From Octopus vulgaris (Eukaryota), in the NCBI GenBank assembly GCA_951406725.2, contig OX597819.1, positions 88,846,001 to 88,910,000 of the forward strand: a stretch of 64,000 nt of DNA, written 5' to 3'. This document shows, piece after piece, positions 4,392 through 32,089 of this stretch; positions within the stretch are counted from its first letter, which is position 1; each line of letters begins with the position of its first letter. The position numbers were made by a program, and so were the translations under genes. The notes beneath the pieces are model-generated. The model did no database searches. It was not told the origin of the DNA and saw only the letters and a list, made by a program, of their open reading frames with translations.

Positions 4392-4437
<46 letters not shown>

Positions 4438-4512
4438 GTAATAATAATAATAATAATAATATTAATAATAATAATAATAATAATAATAACAATGATGATA
4501 ATAATAATGATG
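4364..4512. repeat. (AAT)n microsatellite
   Basis: Read directly; it produces the poly-N, poly-L and poly-I ORFs. Confidence 0.97.
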
Positions 4513-4985
4513 ATTTCTTTATTTGCCACCAGGGCAATGGCTGAGGAACATGATATAAAAACAGACATAGATTGTGGTAATTTACACAGAAGCAAATGAT
4601 AAAAGAAAACAATGTAATTAGACATGACATACAATATTTAAAAAATTGACAGAAAAAGAAAATAATGTAAGACTGACTATTCATACAGCTTGGAGAATCT
4701 CTAGTGCCAATAGAGGAACCCCACCAAACAAGATCTCCCTCAAAACCAAGAGCCTTCTTCAATTTTTGCTCTCTGACTTATAGGTCTATATTCAGGGCGG
4801 GAACCATCCTTTTTTTGCAAATTTTTACCAATTTTACCCCACTTTCAATAGATTCACTCAAGGACAGCATCTCCCTCTTCACCTTCACCTTTTTCAAATG
4901 AAACTTGAAGAAGTCAATGAGGGCCCTACCAAGGAAGAAAGTCTCTACCCTCATACTTTTTAACCTCATTTATCACACTACCTAT
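4504..4985 (-). mobile_element. Tx1/L1-like LINE 3' end with (ATT)n tail
   Basis: ORF-end remnant RLKSMRVETFFLGRALIDFFKFHLKKVKVKREMLS, then a 3' UTR, AATAAA and (ATT)n. A similar UTR lies at about 3490-3775. The clade assignment is inference. Confidence 0.55.
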
Positions 4986-5439
4986 TTTACTATAGGTCCC
5001 AGACAGAGAAAAACTGCATTCCTTGCTTGGAATGTGAAAAACTGTATCTAGGAAGTAGTAAAAGTGTCTTATGAAATGCTATACGTCTTCACGTGCTTTT
5101 AAGAGTTTATGTTTAACTCAAGCTCCTTGGCAGATAGAAGGAAACATTTCTCCTGAAAGGGCTGCTAGTAAACTGCCAGATAACATCTTCAGTCTATTCC
5201 TTTGTGATTATGTAAACCAAACAGGTTAAACTTAATCATTTAGTGCTTAAACTGGCCATATCCGGCCAGAATATTCTACTTTTTTCATGTTCAAGCTGAT
5301 CAGATCCAACCTCTCACACCTACCCTACAATGCCATTCTAAAGATAAACAATCACATCATCAAAATCTTGAAGCTATGAGATAATGCAAAACTAATTCAA
5401 GACAATGTGAATATATAAGCATTACATTTGACAGAGTAA

Positions 5440-27463: not shown

Positions 27464-27612
27464 CACACACACACACATATATATATACACAATATATACA
27501 CATATATATACATACATATAATCATCATCATCATTATCATCGTTTAACGTCTGCTTTCCATGCTAGCATGGGTTGGACGAAAATATATACATATATATAT
27601 ATATATATATAG

Positions 27613-28567
27613 TACTAAGCAATTAAGGGTTTAGCAACGAATTGCCTCACCACACACCGAATTTAGAAATAGCAGTCAAAGAGTTATAGCTATTCTTTCT
27701 ACTAAAAGGAGATCTCAGTAAAAACACAGCACTTGAAAGGCAAACACAGACAGGCAAGAGAGAATGAAATGACGGCAATCTATCATACAATTTTAAGTCA
27801 CCTACGGACGTACGTTTCGAAATCAAGTTTTAGGAAAGCATAAGAATTAGATAATTCTACCTTACCCAAACTTCTTTTCTCATCAGCGTAGTATACTACA
27901 ATTATGAATAATTGTATATTAAATTTTGAGATACTAGAAGGCACCATCTCAACTCAGTGTCAGAGCGAGCTAAAGCATTACCAGTACCACGAAATTCAAA
28001 GTGAGAATGAAAGTTTGTGTCACCAGCCCCCTTCCACCCGCGTGTAGCCAAGACAAGATGCTGTGGTCATTTACTGGGATAAAATATGGTTATCAGTAAC
28101 AATAAAGGGTGAAATTAATTAATTTGGAATAATTATTCATTACACCAACTAGATTTCGGCATGTAAAAGCCTCATTCGAGGAAAATTTAAGTAATACTAA
28201 GCAATTAAGGGTTTAGCAACGAATTGCCTCACCACACACCGAATTTAGAAATAGCAGTCAAAGAGTTATAGCTATTCTTTCTACTAAAAGGGAGATCTCA
28301 GTAAAAACACAGCACTTGAAAGGCAAACACAGACAGGCAAGAGAGAATGAAATGACGGCAATCTATCATACAATTTTAAGTAGAAAGAATAGCTATAACT
28401 CTTTGACTGCTATTTCTAAATTCGGTGTGTGGTGAGGCAATTCGTTGCTAAACCCTTAATTGCTTAGTATTACTTAAATTTTCCTCGAATGAGGCTTTTA
28501 CATGCCGAAATCTACTTGGTGTAATTAATAATTATTCCAAATTAATTAATTTCACCCTTTATTGTTA

Positions 28568-28573
<6 letters not shown>
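27613..28573 (-). mobile_element. Non-coding hammerhead-bearing element (Penelope pLTR or retrozyme-like), about 1.3 monomers plus an inverted terminal copy
   Basis: Direct repeats 27613-27798 and 28195-28381 (period 582); inverted repeat 28091-28285 vs 28379-28573; (TA)n on both sides; no ORF of 60 aa or more inside. Confidence 0.8.
27802..27891 (-). ncRNA. Type I hammerhead ribozyme with intact core and GUC cleavage triplet
   Basis: Minus strand: CUACG-CUGAUGA-GAAA[long stem II]UUUC-GAAA-CGUACG-UC-CGUAG. Stem I is CUACG/CGUAG and stem III is the palindrome ACGUACGU. Confidence 0.88.
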
Positions 28574-28610
<37 letters not shown>

Positions 28611-28935: not shown

Positions 28936-29368
28936 GACCTGTTGAAGCAAGTGATATCGAAATTGAAATCACATTCGAATACTGGCATCCGTGGTAGTGG
29001 AGCGCTAAGAGTACCATTTGAGCATGATCGTTACCTGCGTCGCCTTACTGGCACTTGTGCTGGTGGCACGTGAAAAAAACATTCGAGCGAGGTCATTGCC
29101 AGTGCCGCTGGACTGGCTCCTGTGCAAGTGGCACATAAAAAGCAACATTTGAGTGTGGCCGTTGCCAGTACTGCCTGACTGGCCCTCGTGCCGGTGGCAC
29201 TTAAAAGCACCCACTACACTCTCGGAGTGGTTGGTGTTAGGAAGGGCATCTAGCTGTCAATCAGATTGGAGCCTGGTGCAGCCATCTGGTTTGCAAGTCC
29301 TCAGTCACATCATCTAACCCATGCTAGCATGGAAAGCAGACGTTAAACGATGATGGTGATGATGATGA
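28933..29368 (+). mobile_element. LINE 3' end or LINE-tail SINE with (GAT)n tail
   Basis: Ends ggaagggcatc ... ccatgctagcatggaaagcagacgttaaacgatgatg. The same family occurs at 20425-20630(-), 23815-24170(-), 38150-38530(+) and 47457-47716(-). Confidence 0.75.
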
Positions 29369-32089
29369 TATACGTACATATATATAAACATACATACACA
29401 CACAGATATCTACATATATGTGTGTGTACACACATGCATGTGCATGAAATCTATTCTGTCTCAAAACAGACAACTGTTACTTTAGTGAGGTTCCATCTGG
29501 ATGACATTCGCTGAAGTGTTAGGAAGATTTCAGCAAATTTATACATAACTTAATTCCTCTAGAAACCAATGAAACTACAAACTAATTATGAGACTAATTA
29601 TCACACTAATTATCAACAGAGACAGACAGTGTTGATGTGATTTGGTGAAATTAATAAATCCTAATTATTGAAATGGGAGGAAACATAATTCCGTCTCATC
29701 TGATAAACCAAATTCCTGTGTTTTATTGTGAGGTTAACTCTCTTAATCTTTTTTCTGTTTTTAGGAATAGATGATTTGACCCTGCCAAAAAAATAAAGTA
29801 AATAAATAAATGAATAATAAAAATATAAAAAAAAAAAACTGCATGAACTGTCCGTTAAAAAAGCTCAATGTCACTGCTAATATAAATTGATAATCTGTGA
29901 AATCCCAATTAAGTAATTAAATCTAGCTAATTCAGATAGAATAAAGAGAGCTGAGAGATTTTTCTTAAGTTAAAAAAAAAATTGATACTTAAGGATATTG
30001 TTCAAACAGATTAACTTCAAAGTCTACAGATATATGAGAAGGTTAATAAAAACAACATTGCACAGAGAATACCAGACAGCCTTATTACAAGTGGAGCTGA
30101 CATTGACCTTGTGTTGCATAAAGTAATAGTTTTTTTTTATATCAGTATGGGTGATACTATAGCAATCTATGCCATTACTACAGCACATCAAATTCAAATG
30201 CCTGTGCAGCTCATTATTGAACACATAAAGTGTGTGTGTGTGTGTAGACAGATATATAGGCAGATAGATAAATAGAGATATATAACTAGATAAATAAATA
30301 TGAATATAGATGTAAATACAGACAAGCAGATGTAATTATAGATATAAATACAAATAGACAGAAAGATATTTGTTGCAGTTGTTGTCTCTGGGTCAACCTG
30401 TATCGAGCTGACCTATACCCAAAAGTATTCCAGCCAAGGCCATCCTGTCAGATGAAGGATATCTAGGTATACAAATGATTCAACTCTGTCCTTCCCTTTT
30501 TAAAGATAGGTAGGGCATGATTTGACATAAACTCATGGTCATTGTTGGGAATGGGAGGAGGAGGTGGAAGGTAATTGCAATAAATGTTTAACCCTAGGTC
30601 AGTCCTGAATGACCAGACATAGATTAGTCAATCAGAGTTGACCAGGTTCTTCCAATCATGACTACCCCAGCTCTTCTTTATCAGGGATTGGCATATATCC
30701 GTTGTATCCTTCCACATTTAAGACAACAAGGTGTGATTTGAAGGAGGTTTGGCTGCTATTTCTAGGTTGAGCATCTATGTATGGGCTTATTTGTTGGCTC
30801 ATTATAGGCTGTAGTAGTCTTGGGTTGTTGTAGTTAATGAAATATATTTTATTAGTTGTAGTCGTATTCAATGCTGTTATTGTTGTAGCTGTTATTGCAT
30901 TGGTTTAGATATGGTAATTGCTCTCACTGCTGTCGAAGCCAAAATGTGATAACAGTTCATATATAACCAATATTATTGCTAATGTTGTTGTTGTTGCTGT
31001 TGTTATGTTGTAGTAATCATTGCATCTATTGCTTGTGCCGATGCAGCAGCTGTTGTGGTTGATGTCATTGCTATGGTTTTAATTGCTTCGGCTGTCGTTT
31101 CTTAATCTCTATTAAAAGACTGAGACCATTCTAGCACATCTAATTACATTTAAGTTTATGGACTAAAGTGAGAGGTGGGCCAAAGAAGGAAGCAGGTTAA
31201 TGCAGGAAGCCTCTAAGTGGTCAGTCAAACTGCTAAAAATAGCACCAAATCTCTTTCGAAATACACTATCTTTCATAAAGACAAGACGCATTAGATAATG
31301 TAATTCCAATCTCTAAAAGGAGAGAATGGTCATAGCTAAAATACCTTTGATCATAGATATACTCAATCAAGGCCAACCTAGGGCTAAACACCAACATCTA
31401 CATTTACGAGAAATTCTAATAAATGAGGTGGGTATTTTAGGTTTAAAAAAAAACAAACAGAAAAGCGTTAATACACAATAAAAAAAATCTTCAAAGTCTT
31501 TCTATATCAGGGAATACACTATAGCAATAAAAATATATAAAAAGATACTATTTTTTGACAAATATCAAAAGGTTGTATGCTATTAGCAATTAACTGAAAT
31601 ATATAAATAAATGTAATTCAAATAATATGCTTAACAAAAATATTCCAGATTTAGCAGCTAAATGGTTCTCTACATAGTCTTTCAGGCTAAAAAAATTATA
31701 AAATTATTTACAGAGTTGAAGCAGAACATTAGGCAAAATGCTTTGCAAATGTTTGTTTTTGGCACTTTATGTTCTAAGTTGAAATCCTGCTGGCTTTAAG
31801 TTTGTCTTTCATTGTTCCAGGGTTGATAAAATGAAATACCTGTTAACTACGGGAATCAATTTACTCGACCACACCTACCTCTCCCAAACTTATGGCTATT
31901 ATTATGGTATTTTGGTATGGACCAAATGTGTTGTGAAACTTATCAAGTGTTACTGGATTAAAACTTTTGCTTTTTTAAAATTGTTTTGTTAATGTAGCCA
32001 GTTGAAAAGAATCATCAGACACAGTGGTAAACGAATAACACAGGAGAGATATGTTACAAAAGACAGAGGTTTCAGGCACAGGATATAAA

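Follow-up and report, generated by a model that had tools for sequence, protein, structure and literature searches.

Structure of the element

The window, the whole 64,000-nucleotide stretch of Octopus vulgaris DNA analysed here, contains a composite repeat element at 27613–28573, bordered on both sides by (TA)n target tracts (27584–27611 on the left and 28572–28607 on the right). The element is composed of a long arm of 1.32 units (27613–28381), the RNA sense of which is the minus strand, and an inverted short arm (28379–28573), the RNA sense of which is the plus strand, joined head to head at 28375–28381. Positions in the 582-nt unit are given as phases, the phase being the window position minus 27612; with the RNA sense on the minus strand, reverse transcription proceeds towards higher phase. 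The unit itself (27613–28194, minus strand) is non-coding: six-frame translation gives short frames only, and inspection of the six frames by eye showed no residual ORF start inside it. The partial second unit (28195–28381) carries one extra base relative to the first, and position 28381 is therefore equivalent to 27798. The 3′ end of the long arm, 27613, is start site B of the family described below; the short arm spans phase 95 to 479 and has its own 3′ end, 28573, at start site A. The 104-nt 'tail' between the two sites (start phases 479/472 for A and 582/573 for B) has an internal copy at 28091–28194 on the minus strand, and the inverted arm aligns to 28091–28289 with two internal mismatches and one at the junction.

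The original prediction had described a 582-nt unit present about 1.3 times, an inverted arm, flanking (TA)n and a hammerhead, and all of these coordinates hold. The start of the repeat, 8 nt 3′ of the position equivalent to the predicted ribozyme cut, was reproduced, and the AGT microhomology noted at the inversion is real and even longer, extending to 7/8 nt with one gap (TTTTA-AGT). No RT or GIY-YIG ORF lies in the element or elsewhere in the window, and besides this focal copy the 64,000-nt window holds no other relative of the family. A 60-nt inverted pair at 27521–27580 and 29310–29369, 93% complementary, flanks the element at a distance and probably represents the ends of a common high-copy repeat.

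The predicted hammerhead ribozyme

A type I hammerhead is predicted on the minus strand at 27802–27891, with the core elements CUGAUGA (27886–27880), GAAA (27818–27815) and GUC (27809–27807), a stem I of CUACG/CGUAG, a long stem II and a palindromic stem III, ACGUACGU, the self-duplex of which folds at −11.2 kcal/mol. The predicted cut falls between 27807 and 27806, that is, between phase 195 and phase 194. At 27892 the focal copy carries A instead of the C found in 148 of 151 units, and its stem I is accordingly 5 bp rather than 6 bp long. Rfam missed the hammerhead at both the gathering threshold and the E-value threshold, and its fold is not exceptional against shuffled sequences (z = −1.63), so the ribozyme call rests on the motif, on its conservation in 151 hammerhead-spanning units from other loci (104 with the canonical core and 38 with a U4C core) and on two compensatory changes in stem II (A–U to G–C in 31 units and U–A to C–G in 22), each of which is probably a single subfamily event. 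In having a predicted type I hammerhead in each unit, the family agrees with the non-LTR retrozymes. The U4C core (CCGAUGA, at the equivalent of window position 27885) is common to many copies (38/151 units), and variant-core lineages have thus still spread. A motif scan also found a second, unrelated type I hammerhead-like motif at about 2058–2143 of the window, minus strand, with a stem I of CTTTC/GAAAG, a long stem II and a palindromic CATATG stem III, which possibly belongs to another retrozyme or PLE family.

The repeat family and the junction sample

The element belongs to a young family of units of 582–594 nt without an ORF. It is not single-copy, the state that the original prediction had set against itself: an exact 27-mer has 578 genome matches, an exact 22-mer spanning the cut has 544 and a slightly degenerate 29-nt motif has 2006, with none for any of the reversed controls. 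The best 40 of 2240 candidates are 95–98% identical, and the AT content is 61–62% across unit phases 60–470, the GC content thus lying below 50% as in retrozymes.

The junction sample comprised 190 insertions in 186 merged regions, with 291 arms in all; arms below 84% identity were dropped. It was drawn from the 30 best full-length matches, from the first 100 matches to each of two patterns (which have 578 and 133 matches) and from all 78 matches to a third pattern. Rates were calculated from 260 arms, counted only beyond the anchoring pattern, so that long arms were not favoured, and the focal locus was removed from the junction-rate, arm-pair and change-point statistics. At locus L280 an identical 879-nt insertion and its flank occur twice (1689–2567 and 4423–5301), 2.7 kb apart, as a local duplication; this was counted once in the de-duplicated junction tests and in the arm-length and template counts.

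A wider superfamily of hammerhead units that are 67–80% alike was also seen (2652 motif matches; reversed control 0), at loci L128, L138, L157, L177, L207, L301, L302 and L360–L389. Its arms, too, start at the same two distances from the motif (about 35 and 140 nt), its targets are TA tracts, and those few pairs that were viewed are A+B inversions.

Fixed starts, targets and the RNA template

The 3′ starts of the arms are fixed. Among the 291 arms, 168 start at site B (mostly phase 582 or 573) and 102 at site A (mostly phase 479 or 472), about 104 nt apart (104–111 nt), and 21 start elsewhere; an AT tract adjoins 252 of 269 canonical arm starts, in keeping with the microsatellite targeting of Penelope-like elements (PLEs). 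Since the two sites are some 195 and 298 nt away from the predicted cut, on its 3′ side, copying would start inside the RNA and not at a ribozyme-made end. As described in PMC11167929, the Poseidon RT likewise uses two internal RNA start sites in vitro, which define its tail.

The original prediction of a multimeric or circular template receives indirect support from arm length: 68 of 270 canonical arms are longer than one unit and five are longer than two, the longest reaching 4.2 units. In the 47 multi-unit arms the units within one arm differ by 0.14% per nt at shared polymorphic sites, compared with 4.1% between loci, and these within-arm differences almost never recur between loci; the nearest loci are as alike as units inside one arm. 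Such homogeneity fits a circle copied round and round, and fits equally homogeneous multimer transcripts. Contigs from runs guessed to be RNA, though not recorded as such, cover the element but cover the flanking repeats more deeply, so that this coverage says nothing for expression. For Poseidon, the in vitro work in PMC11167929 describes hammerhead cleavage as not needed.

5′ junctions and the predicted cut

The 5′ junctions of the 190 sampled insertions scatter across the entire unit, and the predicted cut is read through in 135 of 146 passages. Only 11 of 269 junctions, that of the focal copy included, lie 0–8 nt 3′ of the cut, and a single copy (L271) ends exactly at it. At phase 190–194, 0–4 nt from the cut, there are eight junctions compared with 2.7 expected (p = 0.006, with the expectation stratified by distance and start site, in a window that is physically defined but was chosen after the data had been seen), and seven of 578 five-nt windows are as extreme. 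Beyond the cut, phase 195–260 holds nine junctions compared with 22.9 expected. The maximum-likelihood change-point in the junction rate is phase 194, with support at 142–146 and 191–207, and in the first pass the rate drops about 2.3-fold beyond it, alike for A and B arms. With symmetric pairs counted once and the duplicated copy removed the change-point is still 194; 61% of bootstraps place it in phase 190–205 and 33% earlier than 190. TA or AT dinucleotide density was rejected as an account of the lower junction rate past the cut, since the density is higher there.

These figures suggest that a minority of templates are cleaved RNA, the trace at family level being weak: an excess of about five arms in some 140 implies that a few percent of templates were likely to be cut RNA, and a junction at the ribozyme cut is true for at most a few percent of arms. 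As a rule for the family, the original prediction that junctions map to the cut therefore fails, given their spread and the frequent read-through. Junctions placed at random relative to the cut, which that prediction had named as counting against it, are largely what was found, together with the weak trace at phase 190–194 and the change-point. Hot spots that match or exceed the one at the cut occur at phases 79–97, 121–125, 138–142, 314 and 364.

For the focal copy, the earlier reading took the 5′ junction to be the processed 5′ end of the RNA: the long cDNA would have run off the hammerhead-cut end and, after losing 8 nt, would have annealed to the microhomology closest by. Such a course would agree with the family excess at 0–4 nt, with the copy ending at the cut at L271 and with the first-pass fall at phase 194 in both kinds of arm, but the distances that matter for this copy show no excess (phase 184–189, 5–10 nt from the cut, with two events besides the focal one after de-duplication), and the wider bin of phase 184–194 has only 11 junctions compared with 6.6 expected (p = 0.07; 48 of 571 windows as extreme). 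A stronger hot spot lies at phase 81–100 (34 compared with 13.4 expected), a third of the bootstraps have the change-point at a phase lower than 190, and no rate step is seen at the cut in later passes (4.45 compared with 3.77 per 1000 nt, p = 0.36), the focal junction being a second-pass one. Because it lies at phase 186, in a second pass, outside the enriched bin and at a 7/8-nt microhomology, the focal junction can be explained without the cut, and its closeness to the cut is probably chance. Run-off from a cut end is rather unlikely for this copy, and it can coexist with the explanation preferred below.

Pairing of sites A and B in inverted insertions

Two-arm inversions account for 84 of the 190 insertions; an inverted, 5′-truncated arm and partial tandems are characteristic of PLEs. 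Among the 73 complete inversions with canonical starts, 70 pair A with B, two are AA and one is BB (p = 7e-18 compared with 50%), although pairs of either like kind would also have been captured by the anchoring patterns; the focal copy combines a B start with an A start. One arm thus carries the tail and the other does not in 70 of 73 pairs, but the tail is 104–111 nt long, compared with the 30–40 bp of PLEs. The arms within one insertion differ by 0.8%, compared with 3.5% for different loci (31 pairs that share 90 nt or more, p = 9e-7), and both therefore come from one template or source. An overlap of 1–19 nt is present at 41 of the 73 inversion junctions.

The original prediction had ascribed the inversion to a template switch, which is likely not its origin because the end of the inverted arm coincides with the second of the family's two fixed start sites. 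A fold-back, in which a single cDNA would turn back on itself, serve as its own template and be cut at the other of the fixed sites, with later deletion within the palindrome making its centre asymmetric, would give two near-identical arms, and in the focal copy the sequence of the short arm indeed lies wholly within the long one, at 85 nt from the junction. Self-priming has been proposed before (in PMC3846280), as has EN-mediated resolution of the tail (in PMC8557442). Near-symmetric junctions are also in excess, at 14 of 70 compared with 4.7 expected and a maximum of 13 in 5000 permutations, and these could come from fold-back or from two enzymes halting at the same RNA end. However, in 35 of the 70 AB pairs neither arm is contained in the other, which plain fold-back cannot give, so that half of the pairs would need a later deletion although the family is young; moreover, in vitro both Poseidon sites are RT starts, and the Poseidon RT cuts and extends both target strands, according to the account in PMC11167929. 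We consider fold-back improbable as the general source of the inverted ends.

Penelope-like elements and a candidate enzyme

The genome contains 6136 GIY-YIG candidates, of which the best 150 were scored. One young family has an intact 781-aa RT+GIY-YIG ORF with a CxxxxC linker and copies that are 95–99.7% alike; it is assigned as Neptune-type by the description in PMC8557442 rather than by a tree. Its 3′ end has 696 exact genome matches and meets (TA)n either directly or after a tail of 33–40 nt. In 100 loci scanned, all eight inverted copies with both ends in view pair a tail with no tail, a small sample, and most other ends are without a tail. At several loci a retrozyme copy and a PLE end lie in one TA tract. 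One young PLE of the Neptune type occupies L164 (244–5490). There the 781-aa frame is overlapped by a 479-aa frame that lies upstream, the pLTRs measure 504 bp, and a degenerate core resembling that of a hammerhead (TTGATAA...GAAAC) is present close to the 3′ end.

The original prediction had proposed looking for a Penelope ORF with RT and GIY-YIG domains attached to the repeat; none was found in the flanks, the family loci or the GIY-YIG loci. The pLTRs of the Neptune-type and other PLE families seen share no similarity with the retrozyme unit. Among 70 GIY-YIG-anchored loci, some of which overlap, there was no autonomous element whose pLTR is homologous; tblastn of the family's own loci and of 30 loci from relatives gave no autonomous parent either, and none was among the top candidates scored with an nhmmer profile of 38 natural copies. 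Comparison of 250 nt on both sides of the 291 arms with three PLE references gave coding sequence at two loci, each across the TA tract. Since no autonomous element with a homologous pLTR was found, the partner enzyme stays a candidate. At L055 (137–1824), and also at L181, the 3′ end of a retrozyme copy meets a 5′-truncated ORF of a second PLE family across about 7 nt of TA, which may be a nested insertion or a chimera; a supposed retrozyme–PLE chimera at L307 was rejected, as a long TA tract separates it from the PLE.

That the copies are 5′-truncated pLTR fragments of an autonomous Penelope-like element, and not an independent retrozyme, is very improbable: every end feature is that of PLE insertions and a rare master could have been missed by searches that score the best candidates only, but a quarter of the canonical arms run from unit into unit without an ORF, and the flanks of the arms are coding at those two loci only.

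Comparison with known systems

The original reading of a retrozyme- or Penelope-like element is supported: the repeat is a retrozyme by sequence and PLE-like at integration. Judged by its sequence, the repeat is a non-LTR retrozyme, built of tandem non-coding units without a long frame, and it lacks the ORF of an autonomous PLE. The focal copy has one hammerhead, whereas an 'active' retrozyme has two consecutive ones (Li et al. 2026); other family loci (L011 and L079) hold two or more units, so the family qualifies as active and the focal copy would be a non-source copy. Further retrozyme traits are self-cleavage in vitro, expression as linear and circular RNA, the lack of a PBS and PPT, and a long target-site duplication, which a (TA)n target would mask.

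As far as Cervera and de la Pena 2020 (PMC7229834) and Li et al. 2026 (bioRxiv 10.64898/2026.07.22.740005) describe the metazoan non-LTR retrozymes, the octopus family is like them in its non-coding tandem units, in a type I hammerhead per unit with a weak palindromic stem III, and in AT-richness, high copy number and the presence of PLEs in the same genome. Its unit of 582–594 nt is longer than the 170–400 nt of PMC7229834 and inside the range of 51–972 nt in the bioRxiv text. The family consists mostly of dispersed partial units, whereas the known metazoan retrozymes form long arrays; fixed double starts and inverted A+B ends, seen here, are not among the retrozyme features described in the texts of these two sources, and no matching pLTR parent was found here, whereas 21 of 57 Xenopus retrozyme families have one according to the same sources.

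With EN+ Neptune-type PLEs, as portrayed by Craig et al. 2021 (PMC8557442) and in PMC3846280, the octopus repeat shares partial tandems, an inverted 5′-truncated arm, an optional tail at one end, a (TA)n target, a hammerhead near the 3′ end and microhomology at the 5′ joint. It differs from them in having no RT or GIY-YIG ORF and in a tail of about 104 nt rather than 30–40 nt, and none of the pLTRs of PLE families seen in the genome resembles it in sequence. The one-sided tail on inverted PLE ends is known qualitatively from the same two papers. With Poseidon PAc of Anolis (Frangieh et al. 2024, PMC11167929), the repeat shares two internal starts away from the cut, AT-rich targets and uncleaved RNA as the main template, on the description given there. 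Poseidon PAc is autonomous with its tail in the ORF start, whereas the octopus repeat is protein-free, and the in vitro reactions reported for Poseidon use the same start site on either strand, whereas here the two ends nearly always use different sites.

In the mainly open-access main texts covered, no count of tail pairing or of junctions relative to the cut was found for retrozymes; the supplements of these papers may hold family consensus lists that include the octopus repeat.

In L1 twin priming, one RNA is primed from two target ends, and its 5′ part becomes inverted and is attached through microhomology; the second priming site is internal and varies, and there is no overlap between the parts. 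The octopus repeat is unlike this in that each of its two starts is at a fixed site and one region is copied into both arms.

Proposed mechanism and significance

Taken together, the element is best explained as a copy of a protein-free hammerhead non-LTR retrozyme that was probably inserted in trans, by double priming, through a Penelope-like RT/GIY-YIG enzyme. Nicks made by such an enzyme in either strand of a (TA)n tract would allow two cDNAs to be primed on the same RNA at two fixed internal sites, one from site B (27613) and the other from site A (28573), 104 nt further 3′. Head-to-head joining of the two cDNAs at a short microhomology would then create the inverted end. The template would mostly be an uncut multimer or a religated circle, since the predicted cut is passed in about 92% of cDNAs; a small minority of cDNAs probably copied a cleaved RNA as far as its 5′ end. 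What the genomic copies show is that starts are fixed, that targets are TA tracts, that A pairs with B, that the cut is read through, that the two arms are nearly identical and that Neptune-type elements have the same end signature. The enzyme, the cleavage, the circle and the double priming are parts of the best explanation that we infer.

PLEs have been proposed as mobilizers of retrozymes (in PMC7229834 and bioRxiv 10.64898/2026.07.22.740005). Against mobilization in trans, an account of a rotifer reports no cross-mobilization between PLE types (Arkhipova 2013, PMC3846280). More specifically, and with somewhat less than even confidence, we suggest that a Neptune-type enzyme moves an unrelated circular ribozyme RNA in trans, using one fixed site per strand, and that the junctions record both circles and cut linear molecules.

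In conclusion, the A+B end rule, common to the retrozyme and an autonomous element, is a more robust and testable finding than the coincidence with the cut. The type of element is itself already known; the near-strict rule of one tail and one no-tail is useful genomic evidence on its mechanism. As the family is young, short and abundant and obeys the same pairing rule as an intact autonomous family, an in vitro test could use its RNA as a small substrate, together with a candidate enzyme. The reinsertion of retrozymes and the origin of the inverted ends and the one-sided tail of PLEs are stated as open in PMC7229834, bioRxiv 10.64898/2026.07.22.740005, PMC11167929 and PMC8557442. If the Neptune-type reading is true, these insertions would provide genomic evidence on how retrozymes move, on how Penelope inverted ends and tails arise and on ribozyme cutting in the germ line.
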